Source of the DNA: a virus
IMG/VR virus record: IMGVR_UViG_3300013027_000005
Coordinates: 1-44,078 of that record
Length of the DNA stretch: 44,078 nt
Strand: one strand, 5' to 3'
Part shown: positions 1 through 44,078 of the stretch, piece after piece
Position numbering within the stretch: position 1 is the stretch's first letter
How the letters are laid out: each line of letters starts with the position of its first letter
Program-made: the position numbers and the translations under genes
Notes under the pieces: generated by a model
Told to the model about the DNA's origin: nothing
The model's database searches: none
What the model saw: only the letters and a program-made list of their open reading frames with translations

Positions 1-55
1 ATGTTTGGTGGCACACAGTCATTCAACAAACAGAACCTGGGTAAAGCCCTTCAGA
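1..55. repeat. 55-bp exact terminal overlap (copy 1): circular assembly closure
   Basis: Positions 1..55 (atgtttggtggcacacag...gcccttcaga) are identical to 44024..44078. The overlap lies inside an open reading frame and 44024 is in frame with position 1, so it is an assembly closure rather than a physical end. Confidence 0.95.
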
Positions 56-1593
56 GGGCGGCTGACCGTGGCGAAGTGGAACTGCTGGAGGAACTGACTG
101 GCAAAGAAGCCCTGAACGTACCCAAGGTAAACGGCAAAGCCTATCGTCGTGTCAAGTGGCTTAAGCCCGCACCCATCACCACTCGCTCGCTGCTTGAGGA
201 CCGTCTTACCACTTTGGATGATGAACTCAACGCACCGGACCTGACTGACGAACGGGCGAACGCCATCCTTGACGAGATGGAGGCCATTCAAGATGAGCTG
301 TTGGGCAACATTGACATCACCAGCGCAGATGCAGTGCAACGCTATCAGGCTGACCTACCAGAACACCTGGTGGGCACCACACCTGAAGCCGTACACAACA
401 CCAAGCAACTCATCAAAGCAGACGAGCAGGCTGAGGAGATATTTGCGCTTGAGGCACGCCTTGAGAGTGAGTTGGATGTCATCAAGGAGTCCATCGAACG
501 GTCACTAAACGACCTTGAGAAGTACCCTGACGTTGGCAGACTACCACTTAACGACAACCCAGTCTTTAAGCCCACCCGCCCACGCGACATTGACACAACA
601 CCGATATACACCGGACTGCCATATGAGCTTAACCAGCACACATGGTACCACGGCACTAAGGTTGACAACGTTGACTTGAGTGCTATCGACCCAAGAAGGG
701 GTGGGGCGCGGGGCGAGAACGGTCCAGCTATCTACTTCACCAACCAACCTGACGTAGCCGAGGACTTCGCCAAAGCCACACCCAACGACAACCTGCCATA
801 CCGAGACGACTTTGTTGAGGTGTCAGAAGTGGGTACGGTTCACGAGGTCAAGATGAACATCAGAAACCCTCTGGACGGCAATGAGGTTCCCACAAACCGC
901 ATACGTGACATATTCATTGAAGCTGCTCAAAAGACTGATGTGTTTGACGAGATAGTTGACGCATACGCCAGGAAGCTACGGAAAAACACAACACCACAAA
1001 AAGCCCTCAAGCTTAAGGACTACTGGAATGCTTTTGGTGAAACTATCCAAGACTACCGTGAGAAGGAGTTCTTTGAAGACTCACCCGTGCTTCCCGAACG
1101 TGCTCTGCTGAAGTGGCAGCGTGAGGTGAACCGAGGACTCATTGAACAGGGTTACGACGCGGTTGCGACACGCATTGGTGCTGGTGGTGAGTTTGTGTTA
1201 GCGGCTTTGGTTCCTGATGTTGTTCGTACCACGTTGGCCAAAACCCCGGTCGGAACAGGTGACCTGGTCGAACAGGCAACTGCTCGTGTAAACGCCACAA
1301 GTTACATCGCTGAGGTGTTCCCCGACAGTATTACCGCAAAAGTTGACTTCAGGGAGGCTACTGTGAAGGCACAGAAGCGTATTCAAGAGCAGCTTGAGGA
1401 GCAACTCGAAACTGTTCAGGCTGAGGCAACTCGCCTGGCTGACCACAGCGCTCAAGTGGAGAACAAGCTACGGAAGCAGGCGCGAACACAACAAGTTGAC
1501 CAACGACGTGCCAACGAACGAAAAGCCCTGGCTGACGACGCCAAGGTATACAACGAGAACACCAAAGAACCAGACCCCTGCGGAGCCCCATGA
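1..1593 (+). CDS. C-terminal 530 aa of the junction-spanning giant virion protein; contains an ART-PolyVal-like ADP-ribosyltransferase domain
   Basis: The track ORF starts at the window edge and its M1 is an internal Met. It carries the motifs WYHGT, GPAIYFTNQPDVAEDFA, VHEVKMNIRNPL and GYDAVATRIGAGGEFVLAALVP. Its stop overlaps the next ATG (ATGA at 1590). Confidence 0.85.
   Translation: MFGGTQSFNKQNLGKALQRAADRGEVELLEELTGKEALNVPKVNGKAYRRVKWLKPAPITTRSLLEDRLTTLDDELNAPDLTDERANAILDEMEAIQDELLGNIDITSADAVQRYQADLPEHLVGTTPEAVHNTKQLIKADEQAEEIFALEARLESELDVIKESIERSLNDLEKYPDVGRLPLNDNPVFKPTRPRDIDTTPIYTGLPYELNQHTWYHGTKVDNVDLSAIDPRRGGARGENGPAIYFTNQPDVAEDFAKATPNDNLPYRDDFVEVSEVGTVHEVKMNIRNPLDGNEVPTNRIRDIFIEAAQKTDVFDEIVDAYARKLRKNTTPQKALKLKDYWNAFGETIQDYREKEFFEDSPVLPERALLKWQREVNRGLIEQGYDAVATRIGAGGEFVLAALVPDVVRTTLAKTPVGTGDLVEQATARVNATSYIAEVFPDSITAKVDFREATVKAQKRIQEQLEEQLETVQAEATRLADHSAQVENKLRKQARTQQVDQRRANERKALADDAKVYNENTKEPDPCGAP
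637..1224 (+). other. ADP-ribosyltransferase-like domain (H-Y-E type, ART-PolyVal-like) within the giant protein
   Basis: The candidate catalytic triad is His in YHGT (codon at 649..651), Tyr in IYFT and Glu in GGEFV. The order and spacing resemble PARP/diphtheria-toxin-type ARTs and the ART domain described in phage and plasmid polyvalent proteins. This is a by-eye match only. Confidence 0.6.
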
Positions 1594-11390: not shown

Positions 11391-11391
11391 G

Positions 11392-12031: not shown

Positions 12032-12751
12032 CCTTTGTGTTCAAGGAGGGGCGCTACACCCTCCTCCGGTTAGTTAACCCGCTCTGTGTTACCACAGAGA
12101 GCAGACTATATCTTCACCTCTTTCGAGGGCGTGGCGCTTCGGGCCGCTTGGCCCTACTCCCCGAAGGGATAGTCGTTAGGGGTTCACAAGCCTTCGATGA
12201 TGTCGCGAATGTTCACTGCGAGTCATCATTTGCAAGTTATCAATATCATTATCTGACTTACACTCATTCTTGTGATGGACCACATACCCGCTTGGTAGTT
12301 TATCTAGTCCGTGAGCGTTACAGTACACAGCGACATGCTCAGGTATCCGTCTCTGAGTTGTGTTGTACCATTCTGGTTTGACTACCGAGTAGTAACCATC
12401 AGGCTCAAGGCTTCTACCTTTCCAGTTGTGATGCGTCTCAAACCGTTTACCTGCCATTAACCCTAACTCTTTCTGACACACAGAACGTGTCCTGCGTTGT
12501 CGTTGTTTGAGTGCTTCAGGCTCATAGTTCAGTTTGAAGTACTTAGCTACCGTGGCGTAAGACACGCCTATAACGTTGGCTATCTGGTGGTATGAGTAGT
12601 CACCTTCGTAGTGACTGAGTATGTCATTAATGGTATCTTTACTTGTCCAGGTTGGCTTGAGCTTCCCACGGGATAAACCTCGTTGAGGTCTTCCCCCGTT
12701 TTCACCACGTTGCTCAATACATGTCACCATGCATTAGACCCTATCTAGTTA
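12032..12751 (-). mobile_element. Putative self-splicing group I intron (about 720 nt) carrying an HNH homing endonuclease ORF
   Basis: It interrupts polymerase motif A. The 5' exon end AGACCU can pair with the intron's GGGUCU 10 nt downstream, placing a U.G pair at the splice site (P1). An in-frame TAG follows 4 nt into the intron. The proposed last intron nucleotide is G (12032). The 3' 145 nt contain hairpins capped by UUCG, GAAA and GUAA tetraloops. Boundaries are inferred to within a few nt. Confidence 0.6.
12176..12730 (-). CDS. Intron-encoded HNH homing endonuclease (184 aa) with an N-terminal HTH
   Basis: The HNH motif is VVHHKNECKSDNDIDNLQMMTRSEHSRHH. The N-terminal YHQIANVIGVSYATVAKY is HTH-like. 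It lies between the two polymerase halves. Confidence 0.8.
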   Translation of the reverse strand: MVTCIEQRGENGGRPQRGLSRGKLKPTWTSKDTINDILSHYEGDYSYHQIANVIGVSYATVAKYFKLNYEPEALKQRQRRTRSVCQKELGLMAGKRFETHHNWKGRSLEPDGYYSVVKPEWYNTTQRRIPEHVAVYCNAHGLDKLPSGYVVHHKNECKSDNDIDNLQMMTRSEHSRHHRRLVNP

Positions 12752-13923: not shown

Positions 13924-14287
13924 TGTAGGGTATCCTGACTAGGTAGTCGTAGCCGTCAGGTGCTGGGTAGAACACCTCAACCTCTCCAGTGTACGTCACC
14001 TGCTTGAGCCAGGGGATGCGCCTAGTTTTGTACTGGGGTTTGAGCCATCCAAACTGAAGGTCATGTGGCAACAAGCTCTTTATGTAGTCCCAACCAGACA
14101 CAGGATGTGTGTAGTTGTGGTGTTTTGTGTATTCATACGTCTGTTCAAACTTACGCTTGCCCACGGTCAGCCGCTTATGCATCATGTTTAGCACATAACC
14201 ACGGCCACGGGGGTCCTCCATGACGTGTGCCTCAACGTTTTGGCTAAGGGCAAACTTCTTAACTTCAGCTTCAATAACGTCTATCAC
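13862..14287 (-). CDS. Hypothetical protein (141 aa)
   Basis: ORF whose start is ATGA-coupled to the stop of the upstream endonuclease gene. Its 3' end overlaps the polymerase start. No motif recognised. Confidence 0.5.
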   Translation of the reverse strand: MIDVIEAEVKKFALSQNVEAHVMEDPRGRGYVLNMMHKRLTVGKRKFEQTYEYTKHHNYTHPVSGWDYIKSLLPHDLQFGWLKPQYKTRRIPWLKQVTYTGEVEVFYPAPDGYDYLVRIPYIEFPHEEAMCDRHRDERFYY

Positions 14288-14661
14288 AGATACCTCTTAG
14301 GAACGCGAATGCCTTCAAACCACCCAAACCCATGTGAGTCACACCAGGATGCGTATGTGACCTTGGAGGTGGGGTTAAGCCGTAAGTTCGAGTTCTGGAA
14401 CTGGAACACGAGCTCTACGTCTGGATGCGCGGCTCGGACTGCCAATGCTTTCGTCCGGTCTGCTGCTGTGAACACTCCCTTCGACTCGATGAATACCCCC
14501 TTGGGAGTCATCCAGTCCGGTGTGTACCTGTGCTTGACTTGGTACTCCAGCCGCCTCTGTTCGTACATCAGCGACGGGTTCGCCAGTGCTATTGAAGCTT
14601 CGAACTGGCTCTTGTACTTCACTCCGTCCTGTGTCGTTCGCTTTCCGCGTTGCCGTGACAT
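14284..14661 (-). CDS. T7 endonuclease I-like Holliday junction resolvase
   Basis: KSQFEASIA...HRYTPDWMTPKGVFIESKGVFTAADRTKALAVRAAHPDVELVFQF...TSKVTYASWCDSHGFGW aligns by eye with T7 gp3 (HTYTPDFLLPNGIFVETKGLWESDDRKKHLLIREQHPELDIRIVF...PTSYGEFCEKHGIKF). Confidence 0.8.
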   Translation of the reverse strand: MSRQRGKRTTQDGVKYKSQFEASIALANPSLMYEQRRLEYQVKHRYTPDWMTPKGVFIESKGVFTAADRTKALAVRAAHPDVELVFQFQNSNLRLNPTSKVTYASWCDSHGFGWFEGIRVPKRYL

Positions 14662-16195
14662 TGCTACCTACTTCTGTGAATACTCGTGTTGTTGTGTCAA
14701 GGTCGAGTTGCACGCTCCCAAACTCACCAATAAGACGGTGCGCTTTGAGGGTGCTTATTTCGGTTGTCGTGCTGTCACGCTCGCGGCCAATGCCAAACAC
14801 CGCATCACTTAGGTGCCCGATGCCTGCACTACCACGCATCTTGTCTAGTCGTGGGTTGGTGGGCTTCTCGCCCTCCGAACGTGACTGGTGACACACATTC
14901 AGGATACAGATACGTTGGCTGATAGAGGTTGACTTGAGCATCATACACATCTCATCTATCTTTTGCCAGTCATCCTGTGTTGCCGCGTTAATGTGGTCTA
15001 ACACAACAAGACCAACGTTGTCAGCCCTCACGACATGTCCAATAGTCTTGACCAGCTTTTGGGGGTCCACGCTGCCGATGTGGTTGTACAGGTGTAACGT
15101 ATCCTTGAAGCCTGAGAGCCAGCGCTTCAGGTCATCTGGGTGGACGTTGGCCCCGCCCTTGGGGTCAGAGATAAGCTTGCGTTGTGCTGCAAACTCAGCA
15201 AACTGGAGGAGTGTGGTTTCAGCGGTCATCTCAAGTGGAATGTAAAAGCATTTCATTCCAGCTTGCATTGCATTGTAAGCGAGGGCTCGTACCACATAGC
15301 TTTTACCAATGCCAGTTGCTCCGGTGAAAGTGATAAGCTCCCCTGGCCTAAAGCCACCAACAAGTCTGTCCAGACCAGCGAAACCTGTAGAGATGCCTTC
15401 TCGTTCGTCTTTGTTATAGAAATAGTGCAGGGCACGTTCGTGAAGGTCGTCATTATCGAGTACGCCATCAGGTTTAACCTCACTTGCGCGATAAATGCAT
15501 TGTTTGAGAGCTTCAGCTTGATGCTGCTGTGTTAGTTCGCATGCGTCCTTGAAGCCAGTTGGCAACACGACACGTCTGACTCGTGTGGGTTCGAACAGCT
15601 TGATAACTTCGTTGGTTGCGCGTTGGCCTGGTTCATCGCTGTCGAAGCAGATGTAAACCGTTTCGAACCTGTCGAGGTTTTCCAGGACTTTTCGGACTGC
15701 ACGTGCCGCATGGGCTGCACCGTGGCTGATGGACAGAACGTTGTAGCTGGGTCCCATTGTGTCGGCAACTGCAAGGCTGTCACTCTCGCCCTCCGTGATA
15801 ATGAGGTTGCCACGGTCCTTCAGGGTTTGCATCCCGAACAGCTCGACGTGCTTGCTGTTGCCCTCCCAGTAACGGGTACCGTCTGGTCGTTGGAACTTGG
15901 TTGCAACCCACACACCGTCAACGTAGTAGGGAAAAGCCAGGTCGTCGCCCCTGGCCCCAACCCCATACCGTGAGCATGTCCCCTCCCTGATGTTCCGGCT
16001 CTCCAGTGCAACTGGTACCAGGTCAGGAGGTGTGTAGTCAACGTAAGGCGTGAGTTCCCCATCGTGTGTCATGCCATTGCCCTTTATAAATGTATTGCAG
16101 GAGAAACAGTAGGAACTGCCATCAGAGTATAGGGAGTTAGCATCTGACGACCCACAGGCGGTACAGTGTGTGTGTTTAAGGAACTCAGCAGCCAT
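14375..16195 (-). CDS. T7 gp4-like bifunctional primase-helicase (606 aa)
   Basis: The N-terminal Zn finger is CTACGSSDANSLYSDGSSYCFSCNTF. A TOPRIM region (ITEGESDSLAV, CFDSDEPG) follows. Walker A is TGATGIGKS, Walker B is VVLDHI, and CHQSRSEG is also present. The last 97 codons overlap the resolvase gene in another frame. Confidence 0.85.
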   Translation of the reverse strand: MAAEFLKHTHCTACGSSDANSLYSDGSSYCFSCNTFIKGNGMTHDGELTPYVDYTPPDLVPVALESRNIREGTCSRYGVGARGDDLAFPYYVDGVWVATKFQRPDGTRYWEGNSKHVELFGMQTLKDRGNLIITEGESDSLAVADTMGPSYNVLSISHGAAHAARAVRKVLENLDRFETVYICFDSDEPGQRATNEVIKLFEPTRVRRVVLPTGFKDACELTQQHQAEALKQCIYRASEVKPDGVLDNDDLHERALHYFYNKDEREGISTGFAGLDRLVGGFRPGELITFTGATGIGKSYVVRALAYNAMQAGMKCFYIPLEMTAETTLLQFAEFAAQRKLISDPKGGANVHPDDLKRWLSGFKDTLHLYNHIGSVDPQKLVKTIGHVVRADNVGLVVLDHINAATQDDWQKIDEMCMMLKSTSISQRICILNVCHQSRSEGEKPTNPRLDKMRGSAGIGHLSDAVFGIGRERDSTTTEISTLKAHRLIGEFGSVQLDLDTTTRVFTEVGSNVTATRKANDTGRSEVQEPVRSFNSTGEPVADVRTEAAGVPSQAQVHTGLDDSQGGIHRVEGSVHSSRPDESIGSPSRASRRRARVPVPELELTA

Positions 16196-16206
16196 CGTGT
16201 GTCGTC

Positions 16207-16842
16207 CTATAGTGGTTTGTCTCCCCCTAGCTTTTCATACAGCTCATCAGGGGTTATGTCAATACGTCCCATTCCTAGCAGTACAGTCACAGCTTCAACA
16301 CAGGTGTAGTTACGATGCGGTTTGCCAATGAAGGAACACCACAAGTCTTTGACTGTTATCATATAACATTTCTGTGCCATTTCCACAGCCCTGTCCCACA
16401 TCTGAAGCATTTCGTCAGTACCGAAGGGCTTCATGAGGTAGTCATCACACGGTAGGTCGTGCTGGGGCTCCTCCTTAACACACAAACCTTCACAGGTCAT
16501 TTCCAGCCAACAGTCATCAGCATATAATGTGACGTGGACGTACTTGTTGTGAATGTTTCGAAGTTTGAGAAAGAACCACACAACAACACTACGGTAGTCA
16601 TTCCAGTCCACCTTGTGAAACAGGACCCACAAGAAAGGCGCATTCGTAGAGACTTTCAACATAGTGTTTGAGTTTTGATAGGAAGTTGGCACGGACACGT
16701 GGGCTTTTGACAGGTTCCTCATCACACCACGCCTTGAACAGTGCTTCTGTGTTGTAGCGACAGCCGTAGACACGGTTAATGCGCTCAACGGTAACGGCAG
16801 TTTTGATGATGGGGCTTGGGCGCAGGGCACTGGTGATGTCAC
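16207..16842 (-). CDS. Hypothetical protein; true start probably internal (Met 16722 or 16662)
   Basis: The 5' third of the ORF overlaps the preceding gene and has a poor composition. The C-terminal 150 aa look protein-like (Cys- and Trp-rich). No motif recognised. Confidence 0.4.
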   Translation of the reverse strand: MTSPVPCAQAPSSKLPLPLSALTVSTAVATTQKHCSRRGVMRNLSKAHVSVPTSYQNSNTMLKVSTNAPFLWVLFHKVDWNDYRSVVVWFFLKLRNIHNKYVHVTLYADDCWLEMTCEGLCVKEEPQHDLPCDDYLMKPFGTDEMLQMWDRAVEMAQKCYMITVKDLWCSFIGKPHRNYTCVEAVTVLLGMGRIDITPDELYEKLGGDKPL

Positions 16843-20943: not shown

Positions 20944-21204
20944 TCATAAGAGATAGTCAAGGTACTCGTCATCGACTTCATCAAACACAGAACTGGGTTG
21001 CATCAGTTCCTCAAAGGTACTCAAACACCCCGGTAACACACAACAGGGTGCTGTGACACTGTTAGGTAGTTGGTTGAAGTATTGAAGGTCATCGGTGAAC
21101 ACAAACAACGTAACGAAGTTTTCAACGTGCTTGTGAATGTCGTTGACTGCGAATGCGGGACGGGCGTTGGGAAGGAGCGCAGCTTCGCTGCTGTTCGGGT
21201 GCAT
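20944..21204 (-). CDS. Hypothetical acidic protein (86 aa)
   Basis: Its start overlaps the stop of the upstream gene at 21204. No motif recognised. Confidence 0.4.
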   Translation of the reverse strand: MHPNSSEAALLPNARPAFAVNDIHKHVENFVTLFVFTDDLQYFNQLPNSVTAPCCVLPGCLSTFEELMQPSSVFDEVDDEYLDYLL

Positions 21205-22445: not shown

Positions 22446-22979
22446 TCAGTTAGTAACTGTGACAGGGATAACATACAACCTGTTTAACCTCATGAAGTAG
22501 TCGTATTGTTTGAACATCCGTTCGCCCAGTTGTTCGAGGGCTTGAGCCGAGGCCCCACCCATCCGATAAACACGCCTAACAGTGCTCGCCAGGGCACGAG
22601 CCATATTCCGTGTTGCGATGCCAGCCCAGAGAACCAGCGTAACGAGTGTGATGAAAATATTTAGGTACTGCTTGAGAACAACAGGCATCTGGTTGTGTGT
22701 AGTTGTTGTGATAACTGGAAGAGGTGAGCTTTGGTAGTGGCACACGTCACAGCTAGGAGGTGCCTCAACTGTTGCGTTGTCCACGGCATCGCCAACGACA
22801 ACAGGCTCAACAGCAGCGAAGCTGCGCTCCTTGGCAATGGGTTGTGTTGCCATCTCAGTTATGTCGGCGTTATGTAGAAGCTCAACAAGTTCAGCCTTGC
22901 GGAGGTTGCTGTATCCTTTGAGGTTACGTGCTTTGGCTTCGGCTTTAAGTTCTTTAACTGTCAGTTTGATGAAGGTCAT
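22446..22979 (-). CDS. SAP/Rho_N (HeH) motif protein with a C-terminal TM helix
   Basis: The N-terminus LTVKELKAEAKARNLKGYSNLRKAELVELL is a typical SAP/Rho N-terminal helix-extension-helix motif. The TM helix is YLNIFITLVTLVLWAGIAT. Confidence 0.55.
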   Translation of the reverse strand: MTFIKLTVKELKAEAKARNLKGYSNLRKAELVELLHNADITEMATQPIAKERSFAAVEPVVVGDAVDNATVEAPPSCDVCHYQSSPLPVITTTTHNQMPVVLKQYLNIFITLVTLVLWAGIATRNMARALASTVRRVYRMGGASAQALEQLGERMFKQYDYFMRLNRLYVIPVTVTN

Positions 22980-29300: not shown

Positions 29301-31372
29301 ACGAAGTGAACCATTCGGTGAACGACAACGAGTTTATGGTTATTCAGACGGGTAACCCCCGTCCATTAAGTCAACAGTACAGTGACATTTCAGCGTTTGT
29401 CCGTGACCAACTCGACTACTTTGCCCAGGCGCGGCAGTCAAAGGAGGAGACTTGGCTGGAGTGCTGGGCAGCGTACATGCCAACGCCTGAAGCTGAGGAG
29501 CACATGCGTAAGCGTGTCCTTAAGTCCGTTGGTGACACCCACATGAACTGGCGACACAAGATAAACGTGGGCAAAGCGTTCGAAAACGTGGAAACCATTA
29601 ACGGTTATCTTCAGTCAGCATTCTTTCCGAACCGTGACTGGATGGACGTTCAGCCCAGAATGCCTGGGTATGTGGACACAGCAGAACTGGTCAAGAAGTA
29701 CATGCTCAACAAGCTTGACAGCCTCAAGTTCAAGACTTATTGGGACATGTTCACACGACAACTACTCATCACAGGCTGGTCAGTCATGGCCTTGCCCTGG
29801 CGTCATGAGACACGGAAATGGAAAAAGCGCATCAAGAAGACCTTGCCCAAGGTTGGTGCCATTACTGAAGAGGAGGCTTACCAGTTTGAGGTCATTGAGG
29901 AGGAAAAGGTCGTCCACAGCGCACCCGACTTTGAGGTGCTTGACGTGTTCGACTGCTACCTGGACCCCGATGCCCTGGACGCTAACAGCAGCGCCTTCAT
30001 CCGGAAGATAGCACGCACCAAAGCTGAGGTGTTAACGGACCTGCGGACAGGCTACTACCAGAAGGGGAACATCAACGAGCTTGAAGTCATCAAGCACGGT
30101 GCCCTGGACGCCAACCACTCCAACGACGCAAGCCGTCACAAGAACACACTCAAGTCCTTCCAGGGTGTTCAAGTCGCTCCGTATCGGATGAACGACCGTA
30201 TTGAACTGGTGGAGTACTGGGGTGATGTTGTTATTGACGGTTACACCTACAAAGACGTGGTGGTAACCATTCTGGGCGACCGAGTTTTGCGCTTTGTCAC
30301 CAACCCCTATTGGTGTGGCAAGCCATTTGTCGTCGGTACTTACATCCCCATTGTGCGCTCCCCCTATGCCCTTGGAGCTATTGAGCCCAGCTTGGGTATG
30401 TTGCACGAACTCAACCTTATCACGAACCAGCGTCTGGACAACCTGGAAATATCAGCCGACTCAATGTATACGCTGCGAGCGGACGGTACTCTTCAGCCAG
30501 AAGATGTGTGGACTGAACCCGGTAAAGTGTTCCCCGTATCGGAACACGACGACTTACGGCCTGTTGACCACAGCCAACCGTTCACCATCACCTATGAAGA
30601 AGCAACCGTTCTTGAACAACGTATTGATAAAAACACTGGTACTGGCGCTTTTATCGGTGCTGGTCCTGGACGTAGCGGGGACCGTGTTACGAAAGCTGAA
30701 GTACAAGCAGTGCGGGACGCCGGAGGGAACAGACTTTCAAGTTTGCACAAGCACATTGAGCAAACAAGCCTCCTTCTGGTCCTAGAGAAGGTACTGCGCC
30801 TTGCCCAGGAGTACACAACAGAGGATGAGGTCATAAGAACGGTTGGCAAGGAGCCAGGCACCTTTGAATATTACGAGGTGGGGCCTGAGGAGCTGAACAT
30901 GGACTTCTTTATGAGTCCTGTTGGTGCCGACCACGTAGCCGACCGTGACGATGCCTTGAATAAGCGGATGAGTTTTCTTGAACTTATCGCAAAGTTTCCA
31001 GAGCAGTTCAGCCCTCACATCGACTTTTACCAACTATTGTTGCAGATAGTCCGATATTACGGCTTCGACGACTACGAGAGCTTTGTTCAAAAAGACATAA
31101 ACAAACCCCAACCTGACCCCGCTGCAATGCCTCCTGAAGGTTTACCACCCGAAGGAATGCCCAACAGCAGCGGAGCTGCGCTCCTACCTGAGCCCGACCC
31201 ACTTGAGCAAGCCGCGCTTGAAATGGGTGGTGAAGCCGGAGCAGCAGAGCTTCAAGCACAGATGGCAGCAGACGGTGGCATGGATATGATGAAGCGCCTA
31301 TTTGGTGACATGGACCCGCGCATGGCCGCAGCCGCACCTCCCAGTCCTGAAGATGTACTAGCAGAACAATAA
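29297..31372 (+). CDS. Portal protein
   Basis: A 691-aa ORF that is GTGA-coupled to terL and followed by scaffold and capsid genes. The C-terminus is acidic and Pro-rich. Confidence 0.7.
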   Translation: MNEVNHSVNDNEFMVIQTGNPRPLSQQYSDISAFVRDQLDYFAQARQSKEETWLECWAAYMPTPEAEEHMRKRVLKSVGDTHMNWRHKINVGKAFENVETINGYLQSAFFPNRDWMDVQPRMPGYVDTAELVKKYMLNKLDSLKFKTYWDMFTRQLLITGWSVMALPWRHETRKWKKRIKKTLPKVGAITEEEAYQFEVIEEEKVVHSAPDFEVLDVFDCYLDPDALDANSSAFIRKIARTKAEVLTDLRTGYYQKGNINELEVIKHGALDANHSNDASRHKNTLKSFQGVQVAPYRMNDRIELVEYWGDVVIDGYTYKDVVVTILGDRVLRFVTNPYWCGKPFVVGTYIPIVRSPYALGAIEPSLGMLHELNLITNQRLDNLEISADSMYTLRADGTLQPEDVWTEPGKVFPVSEHDDLRPVDHSQPFTITYEEATVLEQRIDKNTGTGAFIGAGPGRSGDRVTKAEVQAVRDAGGNRLSSLHKHIEQTSLLLVLEKVLRLAQEYTTEDEVIRTVGKEPGTFEYYEVGPEELNMDFFMSPVGADHVADRDDALNKRMSFLELIAKFPEQFSPHIDFYQLLLQIVRYYGFDDYESFVQKDINKPQPDPAAMPPEGLPPEGMPNSSGAALLPEPDPLEQAALEMGGEAGAAELQAQMAADGGMDMMKRLFGDMDPRMAAAAPPSPEDVLAEQ

Positions 31373-34034: not shown

Positions 34035-37000
34035 TGGTCCAACAACTACAACAGCAGCCAGAAGACGCCATCCAGAGCTATAACTTTGGGGGACTTATGA
34101 CAGCATCCAACCCCCTGAATATCCCACCAACCCACAGTCCTCTGCTGCTGAACGCTGACATTGACGACAACGGCAACGTCACCAAACGCAAGGGCACACG
34201 GTCAATGCTTTTCCGAGATGGTCCCATAGCTGAGGGGTTTCTCACCATTCCTTTTGTGTCCACCCTTGGTTACAACTACACAGTAACCAAAGAGGACTTG
34301 GCCATCAAGGTGTACAACACACTGGACAACGTGACCAGTTTGCTGCTGACCAAGGAGAACGTCTGGACCAGTGCTGTTAGTCGTGTGAGACCGACCTACG
34401 CCATTACGTCCGAAGCCCAACCCCGCATCATTATGTGTACCGGGGCCAACGCACCCGTGGAGTTGAAGTTCACCGAAAGCAGTTTGGATGTAGCACCTAC
34501 AACAGCCACTACCACTACTGTGTTCGGGAGTGCCTCCCCTTTCAAGAATGCCTCAACCGTTAACTGTTTGGTCTACTTCGACCGTACCCGTGTTGTGTCT
34601 CCCACATTTACATACGACGCAACAACCGGAAACCTCACAGTTGGGGGTCTGCCGAGCCACACAGGAGCACACACGGTTGACCTTGTGTTCGTTGTTTGGG
34701 GTGTGTGGGTCGAAGCCATTCGCCACTTTGGTTATGAGCTTTATGACACCACGACACGTTTTCACGTTGCACAGACCGACAACAATGTAGCAGTCCCAGA
34801 GGGCATATGGGCTGACGCTGAGCCGTTGGGGACCGCACAACTACGCTGGCCTATTCTTGCATACCCAGGTACCACTGGCAGTGGTCATGTTCTTAATGGT
34901 AGTCGTAACCCCGCAACCGCAAACGAGTACAGCTTCAGTGACGGCACAGCATACAAGAAGGACACACCTGTAGTTGGTGTCACAACCAACCCCAGTCCGC
35001 TGTTCATTACGTTTGGAGCCATCACTGCCAGCAGCCCACCCACCGCTGTTCACTTTGTGCGAGGACGTGCCCTTAACTTCCGAGGGAACCTCATTGAAGG
35101 TGTCGAAGCCAACTACTTCCAGGTGTATGTTGATGGTGTTGAGAAGCCTCAGCTCGGTAACCCACACGTACCTTACCAATACGGAACCTGGTCGCTTCGC
35201 TACCACGCTGACTATAACCTGGTGCCTGATGGCGCTACCCCTGCAAAATACATCACATTCGACCGCTACAGTGAAAACCGAGGACTTCCCAAAACAGCTA
35301 TTGTAGACCTCATTCAGAAAAAGAACTACAACAACGTTGGTACGGCATTCTATTTCGAGAACGTTGGACGTGCGACCGACATTGATGGCTGGAGGGTTCC
35401 GGCTTACGGCATCCAAAACTTCAGCAACTACAGAACTAACTCACACCCCCGTAACGTAGCCCTCTACCAGGGACGTTTGGTGTTTGGTGGTTGGAAGGAT
35501 AACCCACTGCTGGTGGCCTTTAGTGCCGTCTACGATGCCAACACTCCTGGCGTTAACTTCCAGTACTTCCAAGTCGGAAGTCAAAATACAAGTCAACTAG
35601 ATGCGCTTGACGTACTGTTGCCGTCATCCAGTGATGACCGCGTGACAGCCATCGTCGAGTGGCAGTCGTCGTTGTTCATTCTTACACGAAAAGCAGTCTT
35701 TCGACTGTACTCTGGTGAGGGTCAACAGCTAAACCTCACGTCTCGTTACGTGTCGTTTGTCTCAAACCGTGGTCTGGTAAACCCACACTGTGTCGTTCGA
35801 ACCGATGACTCTGTGTTGTACCTGACTGACCGGGGCCTCTACTCGTTGGGTAGTGCTACTCAAAGTGGTGAGTACGACACACGAGACAAGAGTGAAAGCA
35901 TCCGAGACATGTTTGGTTTGACCACGAACCTGTCATACGAGTCACTCGCCTGGGTGGCTTGGGATGGTCTTAACCAGTTCGTCTATATCGGGTACCCCAC
36001 TACGGAGTCACTGGCACACGCCAAACGTCTGTTGGTGTACAATAACCATCGTGGGTCGTGGACTGAATACGACACACCAAACGGGTTTAACCCCATCTTC
36101 ATGTCACCCTATACGGACCGGGCTTTGGGGGCGGGAATGATGATGAGCTGCTCCAGGTACAGCGGACTACACATTCTCAAGATGAACAACGACGACACAT
36201 TCATCGACTTTGCCAGGTACGTCAACATGACCACGGCAAACCTGAACACGCTACGCAACCTGGAAGTGGCTGAGATAACCCACACCACCAACACAGGTCA
36301 GCAGGAGTACCGTACGAGCTACTCAACTATTCCGCTGTCCAACATTTACGACAGCATCGTGACTTTGAACGGCGTTGTCCAGGAACCTGGGGTGGACTGG
36401 CGTAAGTTACCCAACGGCAGTATCTGGTTGAACTCACCGCCTGGAGGGGGCATAACCCTCACCATACGAATGAAGGGTACTCACGGCAACTCTCCTGTTT
36501 GTGTGTTTCTGAATGGAGAGCATCTGGATGAAGACGTTCACTACACCGTCAGTGGAAACATTATTTCAATGCTTCCTGGTGTGTTGTCAGACACTGAAAC
36601 GAATGCTGTCATTGTAGGCCAAGTCTACAACTGCATCTACACCAGTCCGATGTTCAGTCGTCAGCGTCTCGATAGCTTTAAACGCCTTCGACACATCCTG
36701 GCCTACTTCGACAACCGTAACCGCAAAGCAAGGCTGAACGCCAACATATCGTGTCTCTACAGCAGTGAGATGGATGGTGAAACCAGTGCCGACATCTACC
36801 AGTTTGATGAGATAGCCTGGGACGTGGACAACCTCACATCATCTCAGTTTCAACTCTTTAAGGAGGCGATACAGGGTGTGGGCTACAGCTTTCAGTTCAT
36901 GTTGTGGTCGTCTGATGAGGCTACCTTCCGTTTGTGTGGCTATCAGATAGACGCAAAACTCAAAGGAAAACGATATGCACACAAAGGAGCAGATGTGTAA
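34031..37000 (+). CDS. Tail tubular protein B / nozzle-like protein (about 988 aa; probable start ATG 34034)
   Basis: It is a large beta-rich ORF after the gp11-like gene, analogous to T7 gp12 by order. No catalytic motif recognised. Confidence 0.55.
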   Translation: MMVQQLQQQPEDAIQSYNFGGLMTASNPLNIPPTHSPLLLNADIDDNGNVTKRKGTRSMLFRDGPIAEGFLTIPFVSTLGYNYTVTKEDLAIKVYNTLDNVTSLLLTKENVWTSAVSRVRPTYAITSEAQPRIIMCTGANAPVELKFTESSLDVAPTTATTTTVFGSASPFKNASTVNCLVYFDRTRVVSPTFTYDATTGNLTVGGLPSHTGAHTVDLVFVVWGVWVEAIRHFGYELYDTTTRFHVAQTDNNVAVPEGIWADAEPLGTAQLRWPILAYPGTTGSGHVLNGSRNPATANEYSFSDGTAYKKDTPVVGVTTNPSPLFITFGAITASSPPTAVHFVRGRALNFRGNLIEGVEANYFQVYVDGVEKPQLGNPHVPYQYGTWSLRYHADYNLVPDGATPAKYITFDRYSENRGLPKTAIVDLIQKKNYNNVGTAFYFENVGRATDIDGWRVPAYGIQNFSNYRTNSHPRNVALYQGRLVFGGWKDNPLLVAFSAVYDANTPGVNFQYFQVGSQNTSQLDALDVLLPSSSDDRVTAIVEWQSSLFILTRKAVFRLYSGEGQQLNLTSRYVSFVSNRGLVNPHCVVRTDDSVLYLTDRGLYSLGSATQSGEYDTRDKSESIRDMFGLTTNLSYESLAWVAWDGLNQFVYIGYPTTESLAHAKRLLVYNNHRGSWTEYDTPNGFNPIFMSPYTDRALGAGMMMSCSRYSGLHILKMNNDDTFIDFARYVNMTTANLNTLRNLEVAEITHTTNTGQQEYRTSYSTIPLSNIYDSIVTLNGVVQEPGVDWRKLPNGSIWLNSPPGGGITLTIRMKGTHGNSPVCVFLNGEHLDEDVHYTVSGNIISMLPGVLSDTETNAVIVGQVYNCIYTSPMFSRQRLDSFKRLRHILAYFDNRNRKARLNANISCLYSSEMDGETSADIYQFDEIAWDVDNLTSSQFQLFKEAIQGVGYSFQFMLWSSDEATFRLCGYQIDAKLKGKRYAHKGADV

Positions 37001-38223
37001 TGGCTGGTGCCCTTCCCATTGTAACTGGTGTCGTTAGTGGTGTTAGCGCTATTGGCGGCATCAGTGCCCGACGCAAGCAGGCGAAAGCCGAAGCTGCATC
37101 CCTCATGGAACAAAAAGCTGCACGTGAGGAACAGACTCGACTACGACTACAAGAACTTGACTTTCAACAAACACTACGTGAAAAGAACCGACTTCTGGAG
37201 CAGATACAGGCGACTCTTGCCTATGACCAACAGAAACAACAACTCGCCTCCAACAACCTTCAAGACCTCCAGCAGCTTCAGACTAACCTATTTGAGAACG
37301 CTCAACAGTACCAACAGGCTGCAACTGGCAGTGTAAAAACCAAAGCCAGTGGTGACCAAGCCATAGGCCAGAGCGCTGAACAGGCAAACCAGGTCATGAG
37401 TCAAGCCCTAGGCGCAAGTACGGAAGGTTTCCAGCAACAGACCGGAACCAATATGCAGGCAGGTCAAGCCCTGGACGAAAAAGCGATGCAAGCCGCCGCT
37501 ATGGAGGGGTTGTTTGCCGCTATGGGTGTCAGTCCTCAGAACAGCCAAGGTTCAATGGGTATGCTTGACGCCAGTGCCAACGAAGCTGCCAAAACCCTCC
37601 AACAACTCACGTCTGCAAACAACAACACCTCTGGAATGGACGCCATCCAAACGGGGTATGCTGCTGACATGGCTGAGCTTATTGCGAAGTCAGGTCTGGT
37701 GAACGCCAACACACTGGATGCAACTGCCGACAACCAGATGGAGTATGCCCGTGCAATGGCTGAGGGCAACCGCAACAACGCCAAGATACAGCGTGACCTG
37801 AACTACACAGGAATGCAGGGGGCTAGGACTGGTGTTGACCTTGGTCGTCTGGCTGAAATAGAGGGTGACAGAAGCACAAACGAGTATGCCCAGAAGCTAT
37901 ATGAGAACCAGAAGGAACTCATTAAGAAAACTGGGGCTTCGGATGCTCGGCTACTGGACATTCAAAAGGGAAGCATTAGCAAGCCTGGACTGTTCAGTAT
38001 GCTAGGCGCAGGCCTTCAGGGTTACAACACCTACCAGAGTATGCGCCCCATGCCCACAGCCGTCCCCATGCCCGGTGCTCGTCCTGTGTCGTCATTCCTG
38101 ACGCAGCAGCCCATACCCCAAGCCGGAGGCATTATGAACAACAACGCCTACCGTGCCATGCTACAAGACAGCCTCAAGGCGTCTGACGGCTCAAGTCCCC
38201 AAGTCTATAACCCACAGTTCTAG
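37000..38223 (+). CDS. Internal virion protein (407 aa from ATG 37000) with an N-terminal TM segment and a Q-rich coiled coil
   Basis: It is TAATG-coupled to the upstream gene. The N-terminus is MAGALPIVTGVVSGVSAIGGI. It occupies a gp13/gp14-like position. Confidence 0.55.
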   Translation: MAGALPIVTGVVSGVSAIGGISARRKQAKAEAASLMEQKAAREEQTRLRLQELDFQQTLREKNRLLEQIQATLAYDQQKQQLASNNLQDLQQLQTNLFENAQQYQQAATGSVKTKASGDQAIGQSAEQANQVMSQALGASTEGFQQQTGTNMQAGQALDEKAMQAAAMEGLFAAMGVSPQNSQGSMGMLDASANEAAKTLQQLTSANNNTSGMDAIQTGYAADMAELIAKSGLVNANTLDATADNQMEYARAMAEGNRNNAKIQRDLNYTGMQGARTGVDLGRLAEIEGDRSTNEYAQKLYENQKELIKKTGASDARLLDIQKGSISKPGLFSMLGAGLQGYNTYQSMRPMPTAVPMPGARPVSSFLTQQPIPQAGGIMNNNAYRAMLQDSLKASDGSSPQVYNPQF

Positions 38224-41200: not shown

Positions 41201-41405
41201 GATAAAGTTTGGTGCGTACAAAAAGAAGATGGGCGCTTCGGTTGGACGGCAGTACAACTACGGTGGTTCATCCTCTAGACGTGCCCGTCTGACTACTGGT
41301 TTATCTGCAAAAGCAAACCCGAACACGCGTGAGGGTGCCGCGCTCATAGCTGCTGGCGCGCCTGACGTACCACACTATCACAGTTCAACTGAGGCATTAG
41401 CATGA
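38286..41405 (+). CDS. Internal/ejected virion protein with M23 peptidase and lytic transglycosylase domains (1039 aa)
   Basis: The M23 domain is PYGMRVHPVHGGHKHHDGIDIAG...GNHLHFEVR (about 40150..40470). The SLT-like domain is WLADMLHNESGFNPDADNGIGYQGLIQF (catalytic Glu codon at about 40920). Confidence 0.8.
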   Translation: MPLRLIGVDRPVVNAQFQAGSLAQTNDQSGEALEQGSQLLQKAAGTLAGANADIAKNSQQMTENTIQGSQRVADNALKIAEVAGRRQADFSKNLSQISEGLTQFQNVNFRRQQAQLEANQAQAQAIAKTEEANRKTAGDYEYTQASTEMEQLKLNAYDLINKEGEPAYVRRVLETAQKYKTLTPEQIRTLTSSGYADAQRVQKDQVEKKVAYTKQVQERLVEQAKQEGMMTISALVTSLDTPMPADKRQAKLNELRGAMDTFVTGVDGIDDLGRISVITALLETTNKYTAAGMNASQDRAQVITDLKNYSDAILPLSLKVQRGEMTIEDYYYERAKLKAANSITGATQFDDPNAALRWRADQMGLNSTINQYGDAERNRAMAQMEVDPFGLAQMVYAVVYDATPIETFTLDPAYKGTAWAGALENVVGDVEKLEKLRREGPVRTAKLKQALAAVNKQEYDKSYSLLKEAYGGTNQVFDVFSQMMGVTPQAKQQIPAAERDAVIKGWFQNSAAMKQALVDEYSGIQKEQGALEATLSKYGLQNGKSSYNVWQKENRPQIEAALKRRSDVLFGASKGPEALPDPIRGGNGSTAALKRITVNNDKGKSLNIPIPFKSSVGSLKMTSPYGMRVHPVHGGHKHHDGIDIAGGTGNDMVVAMTPGKVTFAGRMGGYGNRVEVRHADGTVTTYSHLSKIHLKRGQMVYAGSGIGNMGTTGTSTGNHLHFEVRTGTDENGKNGQSINPLIYLEQLAAGKVGSTPMPRNNTTVGPHYGPVKLPAGSIPLGDGTYYYKGKRHKVLNATFTNGGVASPGNTTRTHNKANPVRSGKWSTNKADYDWPNDEKANYGYGALSRHGPKATQKLAWVANKLGIPAVWLADMLHNESGFNPDADNGIGYQGLIQFNADNRRRYGVTTGQSFESQMNAVYKYLHGRAMEMGGLHTLQRGPESVMLAIWAGPGLHRKWLNGENIDGAGDGWIKFGAYKKKMGASVGRQYNYGGSSSRRARLTTGLSAKANPNTREGAALIAAGAPDVPHYHSSTEALA

Positions 41406-44078
41406 GTCTGATATCCGACATCCAGTCACAGAACGACAAACGGGTACAGGTACAACCCCCAATGGCAGCAATGCCCCCGACCCCAAGCCCCCTACCTGAC
41501 ACCTCTCTAATACCTGTGTCCCCAAACAGCAGCGGAGCTGCGCTCCCTGGAGAGGCATCTACAAGCCCCGTGGTGACCCCTGAGATGTCGGCCCCCACAG
41601 ATGCTGGCCCAGCGCTTTTTGACCCCGCTACGCAGGACGTGGGTGGCGCTCAGACGACATCCACTCCTGCTCCCGACATCAGCAACCCACTGACCCCCGC
41701 TTTGGACCCCATTGCGGGGGAACTCATTAACGCCCCTGTCTCTGTAGGCGAGGAAAGTAAGTTCCAGGAAGCAGGCGCACCCACAGTTGGTGAAGTAGCT
41801 GAACTGACTACTGCCAAGAACCAACTCGACAACATCAACACAAACGCACAACTTGAGAACGTCAAGGACCTGGATGCTCCTGATGCCTGGTACGACGGTT
41901 TCATGTATGAGGGCCCCTCGACTGAGGAACTGCTAGCCGAGTTTAAGACTGATGCGGCTGACATTGTTGACCGCATCGACTGGAACGCATCCCAAGCCCC
42001 CCTTGTGTCACGTATTCCTCCAGCCCCGAACGTTACACCCCAGAAGTTCGCAATGAACAGCACGGGTAACGCCTTTGGAAACCAGCCTAACGGAACGTTT
42101 ACGCCTTTTGGTGGTGCGTTCAGTGATGGTCGTCTGTCGTGGGATGAGGCCAAGATGCTGCTTCAACACGACTGGGCACGTGACAGTGACAAGAAGTTTA
42201 GGTATGGCGACCGCCCCAACGGTTTGATGTGGGCGTTATCCATGCCTGGTGCTGTTGCACGTGGTGCCATCGGCCAAGCCCTCAACGCTGCTGGTGTAAA
42301 AAGGTTTGCTGGTGTGTCGGCTGCTCAGGGTTTTCGTGGTGCTGACTACGACTCGGCTGCTTATCAGAACAAACGCAACCCGTTTGCAATGGTTGGTGTT
42401 GGTGTTCAGCAGGGCACTGCTAAACCGAAGGAGTTCCGTACTGGCATTGGCATTCTGGACAAAGCACTGAACACTGGTAGTCGTGCTGTAACGAGTTGGA
42501 ACAACAACTCAAAACTCTACAGTCAGATAGCTGCTGGCCTTCTGGTTGACGCGGTTACTGACCCACTTGACTTTGGTGTTGACAGGCTTTACGCCCTACG
42601 AAAAGCGCGCATCTCTGGCAAGGTCACACCACCTACGCCTAAACGCGCACCCATCCCTGACTCAAGTGCCCTGGTACACGTCCCAAACCCACGTGTATCT
42701 GCCCGTGTCACTCAAACCGTTCGCGCACTTCCAGCAGCCCCTGTTAAAGCCCTACCTATTCCAAGGACTATGGGCGCTCTGCCGTCAGTACCACGATACA
42801 CACCACGTATTGCGTTACCTCCGTCATCCAAACTACGTGACACAGTAAGTACTGCACGTAAAACTCGTGAGGTGTTGGAAGCTGACATCAGAAAGCGGGT
42901 TCAACAGACCATCAAAAAGAACGCCATTGTCAAACCCAAAGATGTCGAGATACCAGCTAACCTGGCTATCATTGATGTTCGTGCCGTGGAAGTACCTGAT
43001 GGTGTGTCTAAGGTAACCAACCCTGGTCACCGTGCTGTTGCTGTACCTGTCAACCGAACCCCAAGCGCAACCAAACCTGGAGAGGTTCCCAATGTTGTGT
43101 CAGAACTCGTCCGTCGTGGTGCTTACACAGTACAGGATGGTGTGCTGACTAGTACGAAAGCAGATGCTGTGTTTCAGGCTCGTGCTGTTGCCCGTGTTGA
43201 TGCGGAACTCACACGTCTAGCTGACATGGTGGACAGTGATGTGGTCGTTGAACTGAACCGCATTCTGGAGATGGCTGATGAGGTGGTCCCCGGTGCTCTG
43301 GCAAAGGTTAAGGATGAGGTGTTCAGTCTTGTTGCCGCCAAAGCCCCCGCGCCCATCAAGAAGCAAATACTACAACTCCAGGGTGTTAAACAACAACTAC
43401 TTTCTCCAGCAAAAGTAAGTGCCACCACTGAGAACATCGTTCCCACATCCACTGATGACCTCCTGGCAGAAACAGCAGAACTGCCTGTAGTTAAGCCTGT
43501 TGACCTGGTGGGCACACCTGACGCTGATGTTGTGGTGCGTGAGCTTGAAGAGCTGCCTGCTGGTGGTCGTATTGCTCCTGAAGTGGTGGAAACACCTGTG
43601 CGTCGTACCAACAAAGACTTAACCGAGTTGGCTGCGTCAATGGGACACATCAAACCACGCAAGAAACCCCTCAGCCGTAAGCAACTGGACCTGTTGGAAG
43701 CCAAGCATGGTGACCTTTACAAGCCTCTGGGTCGTGATGTTAAGGACACAGTACAGAAGTTACGGGCTTCGGGCACACAACTAGAGGTGGCTCCGGCACA
43801 GGTGGATGGTACACCTGCCCAGACTATGACACTGGACATGCGTCAGCCACTCAGTTACGAAGAGGCCAAGGCGGTTGAGCGCAGTATGCGTGAAACCGAA
43901 ACAGCAGGCAGAGCTGAGCGTGTTGCGCGTGAAAACGCCACGTCTCCACTGGCGGCTGAAGCGCGTGGAGTTGACGATGAACTACTTCGTCGTGTGTTGG
44001 ACCAGACTGACGACATTGCTTCGATGTTTGGTGGCACACAGTCATTCAACAAACAGAACCTGGGTAAAGCCCTTCAGA
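41402..44078 (+). CDS. Giant virion-associated (internal/ejected, polyvalent-type) protein, N-terminal part; continues across the junction into 1..1593 (about 1404 aa in total)
   Basis: This ORF is absent from the supplied track because no stop occurs before the window end. I translated from ATG 41402 (MSLISDIQSQNDKRVQVQPPMAAMPPTPSPLPDTS...) to 44078 and found no stop. The ATG overlaps the TGA of the preceding gene (ATGA). The frame is continuous with ORF 1..1593 through the 55-bp overlap. The listed antisense ORFs 41650..42153 and 43174..43704 are shadows of it. Confidence 0.85.
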   Translation, partial: MSLISDIQSQNDKRVQVQPPMAAMPPTPSPLPDTSLIPVSPNSSGAALPGEASTSPVVTPEMSAPTDAGPALFDPATQDVGGAQTTSTPAPDISNPLTPALDPIAGELINAPVSVGEESKFQEAGAPTVGEVAELTTAKNQLDNINTNAQLENVKDLDAPDAWYDGFMYEGPSTEELLAEFKTDAADIVDRIDWNASQAPLVSRIPPAPNVTPQKFAMNSTGNAFGNQPNGTFTPFGGAFSDGRLSWDEAKMLLQHDWARDSDKKFRYGDRPNGLMWALSMPGAVARGAIGQALNAAGVKRFAGVSAAQGFRGADYDSAAYQNKRNPFAMVGVGVQQGTAKPKEFRTGIGILDKALNTGSRAVTSWNNNSKLYSQIAAGLLVDAVTDPLDFGVDRLYALRKARISGKVTPPTPKRAPIPDSSALVHVPNPRVSARVTQTVRALPAAPVKALPIPRTMGALPSVPRYTPRIALPPSSKLRDTVSTARKTREVLEADIRKRVQQTIKKNAIVKPKDVEIPANLAIIDVRAVEVPDGVSKVTNPGHRAVAVPVNRTPSATKPGEVPNVVSELVRRGAYTVQDGVLTSTKADAVFQARAVARVDAELTRLADMVDSDVVVELNRILEMADEVVPGALAKVKDEVFSLVAAKAPAPIKKQILQLQGVKQQLLSPAKVSATTENIVPTSTDDLLAETAELPVVKPVDLVGTPDADVVVRELEELPAGGRIAPEVVETPVRRTNKDLTELAASMGHIKPRKKPLSRKQLDLLEAKHGDLYKPLGRDVKDTVQKLRASGTQLEVAPAQVDGTPAQTMTLDMRQPLSYEEAKAVERSMRETETAGRAERVARENATSPLAAEARGVDDELLRRVLDQTDDIASMFGGTQSFNKQNLGKALQ
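44024..44078. repeat. 55-bp exact terminal overlap (copy 2)
   Basis: Identical to 1..55. Removing one copy gives a 44,023-bp circle. Confidence 0.95.

Follow-up and report, generated by a model that had tools for sequence, protein, structure and literature searches.

The closest described systems to the gene reported here come from podoviruses of filamentous cyanobacteria, and above all from phage A4 (A-4L), in which mass spectrometry and cryo-electron microscopy (cryo-EM) placed four proteins, gp29, gp28, gp27 and gp26, in a pentameric, three-layered pre-ejectosome that sits on the portal inside the capsid (PMC12002296). This assembly contains 10 copies each of gp29 and gp28 and five copies each of gp27 and gp26; A4 also has 20 gp25 trimers (PMC12002296). 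In its outer ring gp27 (1717 aa) alternates with gp26, the two proteins form between them a basic cleft to which the first packaged circle of DNA binds, and the C-terminal helix of gp27 inserts into a cleft of gp26 itself, with a disulfide between Cys1715 and Cys5 (PMC12002296). The actual fibre of A4 is gp24, and within the gp27 family presence in the virion core has been established for A4 only, by the two methods named (PMC12002296). Here we describe a gene in the IMG/VR virus record IMGVR_UViG_3300013027_000005, which was analysed over its whole length of 44,078 nt (hereafter the window). The gene lies across the two ends of the window and encodes a protein of 1404 aa, which belongs as a new and divergent member to the A4 gp27/Pf-WMP3 gp26 family and is hence of a kind already known. 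As the best explanation of the whole, to which we give a probability of roughly 85%, we propose a split gp27-family gene whose product would be a subunit of the pre-ejectosome and would carry an injected ADP-ribosyltransferase (ART) domain with a His-Tyr-Asp (H-Y-D) site.

Positions 1-55 of the window are identical to its last 55 nt; this is the sole long direct repeat in the window, it lies exactly at the two ends, and the 55-mer has no further occurrence in the contig. The default largest k-mer of the SPAdes assembler is 55, and the overlap is best read as a circular path in the de Bruijn graph, that is as an assembler k-mer artefact and not as a biological terminal repeat. The contig ends have no biological meaning and mark the place where a circular assembly was arbitrarily opened, and because the circle was opened inside the gene, the latter is seen as an unlisted 5' fragment and a separate open reading frame (ORF) of 530 aa. 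With one 55-bp copy removed the circle measures 44,023 bp, and the frame from ATG 41402, stop-free to the window end (892 codons), runs on into the ORF at positions 1 to 1593 to give 874 + 530 = 1404 uninterrupted codons. An earlier inspection of the sequence by eye of a model (hereafter the original prediction) had suggested re-circularisation and had proposed this very fusion, which is borne out here; the "contig junction" that it described is indeed spanned by the gene, but it is the opening point of the assembly rather than a genome end. It had also remarked that no plus-strand ORF was listed for 41402..44078, which is correct and is due to the ORF listing omitting frames that run off the window end, and that the product would be the largest protein of the phage, as it proves to be (the next largest ORFs encode 1114, 1039 and 989 aa).

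The chance of 1404 open codons at the base composition of this genome is about 5e-28. ATG 41402 is the first possible start, as the closest in-frame stop upstream lies at 41390; a GAGG is found 8 nt 5' of it, and the start is further backed by the N-terminal motif M[SG]LI......ND[PK]R, which is conserved in the homologues. All N-terminal modules of the family lie upstream of the junction and all C-terminal modules downstream of it, and P0002 (1363 aa, ~32% global identity), the nearest homologue of full length, is colinear with the joined product (residues 126-878 with 152-932 of P0002, and 934-1401 with 892-1361). The public protein collection holds this gene only as its 3' fragment of 530 aa (P0001), for which no further encoding contigs were found, and word-indexed searches with the full protein, its C-terminal 433 aa or an alignment of 15 sequences returned only this same call from the contig itself. 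Several short members of the family, for example P0003 (358 aa), P0034 (407 aa), P0033 (456 aa) and P0043 (540 aa), carry the C-terminal cysteine of the family at their end and may likewise be fragments truncated at contig edges.

The 1404-aa gene occupies the gp27 slot, i.e. it sits between an ejection gene with lytic transglycosylase (LT) and M23 domains and an all-alpha gp26-like gene. Searched exhaustively with HMMER, 1.84 billion representatives yielded just 76 relatives of the protein, nearly all of 1000-2200 aa, most of which align solely to its C-terminal ~400 aa. One of these (P0062) matched PDB entry 9k3a_B, the A4 gp27 chain, at 5.6e-76, and a family profile of 21 sequences, the protein from the window included, matched the same chain at 3.4e-76 over the N-terminal motif, the N-domain and the C-terminal region up to residue 1716. 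Direct comparison with A-4L gp27 by blastp aligned residues 1080-1401 with 1415-1715 (24.7% identity, 3.6e-8), the final residues being cysteines in both, and gave weaker matches at 936-1052 and 1-68. A single-sequence phmmer search of PDB with the 1404-aa protein returned nothing; the link to A4 gp27 therefore needs a profile or a small database, and it emerged only via an intermediate sequence, a profile and a predicted structure. Structure prediction, which had been suggested for the whole product, was informative for the C-terminal part: an AlphaFold model of aa 1040-1404 (15 homologues) reached a predicted local distance difference test score (pLDDT) of 83 and a predicted template-modelling score (pTM) of 0.74, and Foldseek aligned it best within PDB with 9k3a_B over the whole query (E=1.5e-14, template-modelling score (TM) 0.67, 366 columns). 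Its best viral match was gp26 of Pf-WMP3 (E=1.7e-20, TM 0.75). In the predicted model this region forms an alpha/beta domain and, after it, a long terminal helix, as in the gp27 family.

The closest systems are thus A4 gp27, Pf-WMP3 gp26, TR020 QKE60844 and a 1205-aa ORF of the phage CHP58, all of which are found in the same slot between the LT+M23 and gp26-like genes. They share with the protein described here the N-terminal motif, the N-domain, the ART-fold domain and the long C-terminal helix, as well as a single C-terminal cysteine combined with an N-terminal cysteine in the downstream partner. Compared with A4 gp27 our protein is 313 aa shorter and reaches ~25% identity in the conserved modules only, and it has a variable linker of its own (~90-180 aa) where other members carry ParB, zincin or Arg-Ser-Glu (R-S-E) ART inserts. 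Its junctions with both neighbouring genes are ATGA overlaps, whereas A4 has gaps of 51 nt and 5 nt.

Most of the N-terminal 870 aa had been said to match nothing recognisable. This stands for curated families, of which none matched the N-terminal part in the Pfam and PHROG scans, but within the gp27 family the homologue alignment resolves it into conserved, family-specific modules separated by Pro/Ala-rich or variable linkers. Three such modules are present: aa 1-30, which include the start motif, the N-domain (aa ~211-330), for which the family profile aligns with residues 238-535 of A4 gp27 (2e-8), and an 'RTN' module (aa 721-780), which apart from the C-terminal region is the most conserved part. 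The RTN module is separated from the conserved C-terminal region (aa 961-1404) by the ~180-aa linker proper to this protein, which holds the opening point of the contig (codon 874/875) and includes an insertion of ~90 aa relative to P0002, with colinear alignment on either side. It is at this place that other members of the family have ParB-like DGRHR, zincin HExxH or R-S-E ART inserts. Those members qualify as polyvalent proteins, which combine at least two domains of disparate biochemical activity in one polypeptide associated with the virion or with transfer; the one from the window does not itself do so, as Pfam and PHROG predict a single enzymatic domain in it, the ART-like one.

This domain (residues ~1089-1291) is the best-conserved part of the family. 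ART-PolyVal (PF18760) is the top Pfam match of the window protein, and six of 15 family members match it at E<0.01, each time as their top Pfam hit; as all scores stay under the gathering threshold, we label the domain ART-PolyVal-like and do not assign it to PF18760. The matches of the model in PDB that follow gp27 are all ART folds, namely AcrIF11 (6KYF, E=9.6e-4), MbcT, PARP4, exotoxin A, tankyrases and NatT, and in the viral library BFVD it matches proteins annotated as 'ART-PolyVal-like' or 'PolyVal ADP-ribosyltransferase' with E-values of 1e-8 to 1e-6. The ART of polyvalent proteins is defined by a His in strand 1, a Tyr in strand 2 and an Asp in strand 5 (Iyer et al., 2017; PMC5512222). 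In the predicted model His1091 falls in strand 1, Tyr1119 in strand 2 and Asp1260 immediately before the fifth strand, with a helical insert of ~85 residues between strands 4 and 5. His1091 and Gly1092 are conserved in 76/76 relatives and Thr or Ser at 1093 in 75/76, in homologues whose identity is otherwise 20-35%. ARTs known to be active include Arr, with an H-Y-D site, and AcrIF11, with an H-F-H-D site (PMC8120803). Judging from the conserved residues and the model, the H-Y-D domain is probably active. The original prediction had guessed at an effector-delivery vehicle, which appears essentially right, given the homology to a pre-ejectosome protein (PMC12002296) together with an H-Y-D ART-fold domain of a kind predicted to be injected (PMC5512222).

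Cys1401, four residues from the C-terminus, is the only cysteine of the 1404-aa protein and aligns with Cys1715 of A4 gp27, and the downstream 1114-aa protein likewise has a single cysteine, Cys6 (nt 1605-1607). One cysteine per partner is also found in A4 (1715 and 5), Pf-WMP3, Pbo-yong3 and CHP58, i.e. in four of the five phages compared; the exception is TR020, whose downstream protein has Cys5 but three cysteines in all. A cysteine within the final 8 aa is present in 70 of the 76 homologues, 69 of which have no other cysteine. This pattern strongly suggests that a covalent tether of the A4 type is family-wide and applies to the phage of the window as well, where by analogy Cys1401 and Cys6 would form the disulfide.

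Outside the gp27 group several phage systems invite comparison. The ARTs of polyvalent proteins (PF18760, Tox-ART-HYD2 clade; PMC5512222) resemble the domain described here in having H-Y-D on strands 1, 2 and 5 and in being part of a large phage protein that is associated with the virion and is predicted to go into the host along with the DNA; our domain differs from them in its sub-threshold score, in its helical insert and in being the sole predicted enzymatic domain. T4 Alt is alike in concept, as a head-packaged ADP-ribosyltransferase that is injected with the DNA to modify host proteins, but it belongs to the R-S-E ART clade, is a separate ~76-kDa head protein of a myovirus rather than part of a podoviral ejectosome, and shows no homology to the 1404-aa protein beyond the ART superfamily. 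AcrIF11 (6KYF), the best structural match other than gp27, is a small phage ART of diphtheria-toxin type in which Asp replaces the catalytic Glu; in contrast to our domain it is a free-standing early protein of 132 aa with an H-F-H-D site, made after infection and not packaged, and the two have no sequence similarity. Proteins gp14, gp15 and gp16 of T7 (internal virion proteins (IVP) B, C and D) and gp50 of N4 are alike as capsid-internal proteins stacked on the portal and ejected to bridge the cell envelope, and such ejection proteins sometimes carry lytic or cytoplasm-directed enzymatic domains. However, the A4-type core is pentameric and three-layered with four proteins and has the SLT domain on a different subunit, and the T7 core has no detectable sequence similarity to the gp27 family (hhalign 0.1%).

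By analogy with A4, about five copies of the 1404-aa protein would be built into the procapsid core and form the outer ring of a capsid-internal pre-ejectosome, alternating with the gp26-like protein of 1114 aa encoded downstream. The long helix at the C-terminus of the 1404-aa protein is predicted to insert into this partner, to which the Cys1401-Cys6 bond would tether it, and the ring with its basic cleft would anchor the first-packaged turn of DNA. On infection the complex would leave through the portal and the tail channel together with the LT+M23 protein, which would open the peptidoglycan. The ART domain would then enter the host as part of the 1404-aa protein and might use NAD+ in modifying a protein or nucleic acid of the host early in infection; this step is modelled on the concept of polyvalent proteins and on the precedent of T4 Alt, and would favour the phage. 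More tentatively, and at somewhat less than even odds, we suggest that an active H-Y-D ART is a universal core part of the fourth ejection protein of A4-like phages, which would first serve as a ring element tethered to gp26 by the disulfide and then, unfolded and ejected, would ADP-ribosylate a target in the host, for instance RNA polymerase or a defence protein.

A number of observations weigh against this overall reading or against parts of it. Compared pairwise, the protein is only ~25% identical to A4 gp27, and this within three stretches alone, and the AlphaFold model of the N-domain (aa 150-425) is poor (pLDDT 45), which would be consistent with an N-domain that folds only within the assembly. 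The ART-PolyVal profile scores 19.8 bits with the full protein and 24.6 bits with the C-terminal domain alone, compared with a gathering cut-off of 31.2. Position 1119 is Tyr in 57 relatives, His in 16 and Trp in two of the 76, and position 1260 is not universal either (Asp in 63 and Glu in three of 73 aligned, hence no acidic residue in seven). The main text of the A4 paper mentions no ADP-ribosylation, NAD or enzymatic role for gp27, to which the authors give only structural and DNA-binding roles (PMC12002296). The ART-like domain could thus be structural only, as its A4 equivalent, on which the whole C-terminal region superposes, is an ordered part of the core inside the capsid; the protein would then only build the pre-ejectosome, anchoring DNA and helping the ejectosome to assemble, and would be no effector. 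We regard such a catalytically dead module as unlikely, although a serious contender. It does not readily account for a His-Gly pair retained in every representative despite such divergent sequences, nor for the full H-Y-D pattern on strands 1, 2 and 5, as in polyvalent-protein ARTs that are predicted to be active. The known activity of Arr and AcrIF11 also shows that sites of this kind can work, and enzymatic and structural roles can coexist.

The closure of the circle, on which the split gene depends, raises a further alternative, namely that the repeat joined two different molecules or lost a segment, so that the pieces of 874 and 530 codons are separate or truncated. The k-mer-sized overlap is the only evidence for closure, the junction lies inside the ~90-aa lineage-specific stretch found in no homologue, and no independent contig bearing the junction was found in IMG/VR (protein), in JGI metagenomes (protein) or with a junction-spanning DNA pattern, scans which revealed no close relatives either. 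A small residual doubt of about four per cent remains for this reason. Against an artefact speak the frame, which is kept without a stop, the complementary and colinear halves of the family architecture carried by the two pieces, the uniqueness of the 55-mer, and a full gene set of Saffermanviridae type in a genome whose size of 44.0 kb is inside the family range (39.7-44.8 kb). The database labels of the homologues disagree with one another (tail fibre, ParB-like nuclease, hypothetical protein), and GenBank and PHROGs entries reading 'tail fiber protein', 'tail protein' or 'ParB-like partition nuclease', as well as a match to PHROG 33290 at 1e-17, could be taken to indicate an external tail protein or a nuclease. 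This is scarcely credible: A4 gp27 lies inside the capsid, the match to PHROG 33290 is confined to profile positions 1416-1698 of 1712, i.e. to the ART and helix region, the window protein has no Pfam ParB domain, and ParB-like DGRHR motifs occur only as inserts in P0014, P0028, P0032 and P0039. We therefore rejected both labels for the 1404-aa protein. An orthologue of T7 gp16 (IVP-D), the canonical largest ejection protein, is also very improbable. It would fit the largest protein of the ejection block, a near equivalent position and the cytoplasm-directed domains hosted by podoviral IVP-D homologues such as the N4 virion RNA polymerase (PMC4819975). However, hhalign of the family profile with T7 gp16 and gp15 gave a probability of 0.1%, with sensitivity limited by single sequences on the T7 side, phmmer against PDB returned no T7 core protein, the SLT domain, which in T7 is N-terminal in gp16, is lacking from the 1404-aa protein and resides on the upstream one, A4 has four ejection proteins and not three, and Hardies et al. 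took gp26 of Pf-WMP3 as an insertion between IVP-C and IVP-D (PMC4819975). Homology to T7 gp16 or gp15 was rejected on these grounds, and a split gp27-family gene remains the reading that we prefer.

The features of the gene and of its surroundings are listed in Table 1.

Table 1. Features of the split gp27-family gene and its surroundings, in window coordinates unless a phage is named.
Feature	Position	Strand	Basis or remark
Gene, 5' part	41402..44078	+	codons 1-874, plus 875-892 within the duplicated 55 bp; open frame, N-terminal family motif
Gene, 3' part	1..1593	+	codons 875-1404 and TGA 1591-1593; public call is the truncated 530-aa P0001
Terminal overlap	44024..44078	.	copy of window 1-55; one copy to be removed
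N-terminal motif MSLISDIQSQNDKRVQ	41402..41449	+	aa 1-16; common to CHP58, A4 gp27 (MSIIKDVQDSNDPQ) and many metagenomic homologues
N-domain, aa ~211-330	42032..42391	+	signature YG.(Y)G.G..G..Y.L.L..N...G ... G..Y.F
'RTN..LT.LA...G......PLS..QL..L' module, aa 721-780	43562..43741	+	top conservation outside the C-terminal region
Variable linker, first part, aa 781-874	43742..44023	+	lineage-specific; low alignment occupancy; continues in window 1-258 (aa 875-960)
ART-fold domain with helical insert, aa 1089-1291	643..1251	+	Pfam (sub-threshold), model, Foldseek, conservation
Candidate H-Y-D site	His1091 649-651, Tyr1119 733-735, Asp1260 1156-1158	+	
C-terminal alpha-helix, aa 1318-1395	1330..1563	+	single 78-residue helix in the model; matches 9k3a_B
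Cys1401	1579..1581	+	sole Cys of the 1404-aa protein
Upstream gp28-like ejection gene, M23 peptidase and SLT, 1039 aa	38286..41405	+	Pfam; its own TGA overlaps ATG 41402
Downstream gp26-like all-alpha ejection gene, 1114 aa	1590..4934	+	phmmer against PDB 9k3a_A, 1e-101
Two small genes (182 and 190 aa) ending the ATGA chain	4931-5479 and 5476-6048	+	ATGA overlaps
Dispersed motif, four copies	21174-21198, 22806-22830, 31160-31184, 41522-41546	-, +, +, +	
gp26-like homologues annotated as RNA polymerase or tail fibre	Pbo-yong3 11436-14579; Pf-WMP3 13327-16788; A-4L 10899-14243		

The late genes of the window follow the order nozzle (34031), gp29-like (36934), M23/SLT (38286), 1404-aa gene (41402) and gp26-like (1590), which is identical in A-4L, Pf-WMP3, Pbo-yong3, TR020 and CHP58, where the nozzle is followed by genes for a protein of ~400 aa, an M23 peptidase of ~1000 aa, a protein of 1200-1700 aa, a protein of ~1100 aa and then small or fibre genes. 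The 989-aa protein matches the A4 nozzle (9k09_U, 7e-164), and the 1039-aa M23/SLT protein matches A4 gp28, both in PDB (9k2v_E, 8.7e-35) and by blastp (1.3e-37). The gp29-like ORF (36934-38223, plus strand) is listed from GTG 36934 and overlaps the nozzle gene by 67 nt; its true start is probably ATG 37000 (407 aa, TAATG, 1-nt overlap with the nozzle stop), since the homologues align from Met23 (MAGALPIV...). Public annotations of gp26-like homologues as 'DNA-directed RNA polymerase' or 'tail fiber protein; host specificity' are probably wrong, as cryo-EM of A4 identified the protein as an internal component of the pre-ejectosome.

The original prediction had further described five consecutive late genes as one translationally coupled chain. 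The four ATGA start/stop overlaps on which this was based (at 41402, 1590, 4931 and 5476) are all present, and each start is preceded by a purine-rich, Shine-Dalgarno-like stretch inside the upstream gene; the coupling itself is plausible but ordinary. Other 4-nt overlaps are common in the genome (GTGA at 29297 and 34031, and on the minus strand at 11076 and 14284), which makes the chain real, yet not exceptional, and in relatives only the overlap between the gp26-like gene and the next one recurs (A-4L, CHP58). We also rejected the idea that the chain reflects equal stoichiometry, given the frequency of such overlaps and the copy numbers in A4 (10 gp28 to five gp27 to five gp26, with the 20 gp25 trimers). 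The proteins of 182 and 190 aa that end the chain are paralogous (28% identity, E=1e-19) and show no similarity to the cement protein gp25 and the fibre gp24, which occupy those positions in A4; as no longer fibre gene is found between 6048 and the strand switch at ~6.1 kb either, the phage may have a different, duplicated receptor-binding or decoration protein.

Beyond this region, PHROG and Pfam scans identified a large terminase, portal, scaffold, major capsid protein, gp11-like and gp12-like tail proteins, primase/helicase and DNA polymerase, arranged in two opposed gene arms. By tblastn the annotated relatives are only podoviruses of filamentous cyanobacteria, namely the Saffermanviridae Pf-WMP3, PP, LPP-1/2, A-4L, TR020 and Pbo-yong3 and the hot-spring Mastigocladus phage CHP58, and a comparison of 17 kb from the late region with phage genomes by megablast gave no match at the nucleotide level. 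Rfam and tRNA scans of the window returned nothing. The DNA polymerase ORF (12745-13923, minus strand) has just 392 aa and covers only positions 668-1007 of the PHROG polymerase profile, and the polymerase may be split over several ORFs (neighbours at 11688-12730, minus strand), as in Pf-WMP3, where an intron with an HNH endonuclease interrupts the polymerase; no group I intron was found in the window by Rfam at the gathering threshold. A dispersed motif of 22-25 nt, CC[ACG]AACAGCAGCG[GA]AGCTGCGCTCC, occurs in four copies in the window, with 0 expected by chance and with unrelated flanks. Three copies are read in frame 0 by a gene of the same orientation and give the peptide PNSS[GE]AAL, which is found in an 86-aa ORF (aa 3-10), in the portal (aa 622-629) and in the 1404-aa protein (aa 41-48). 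The motif contains a GCAGC-GRA-GCTGC hairpin, and the identity of all synonymous sites of its core suggests an element acting at the level of DNA or RNA; no match was found in five related phage loci, IMG/VR or reference genomes.

With this gene a divergent phage known from metagenomics is now tied to the only structurally solved four-protein pre-ejectosome, and the comparison adds to the latter the pairing of single cysteines throughout the family and the recognition of the invariant gp27-type core as an H-Y-D ART fold. It also illustrates that the arbitrary opening of a circular viral contig can hide or truncate its largest virion gene. Because A4 is amenable to genetics (PMC12002296), it can be tested directly whether an ejectosome subunit has ADP-ribosyltransferase activity, as is predicted here. 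If the proposed universal role of the ART domain is true, the near-total exclusion of cysteines other than the tethering one from proteins of 1000-2000 aa would be an adaptation to unfolded passage through the tail channel, and the ejectosome would itself be an effector, a feature outside the main text of the A4 structure paper.

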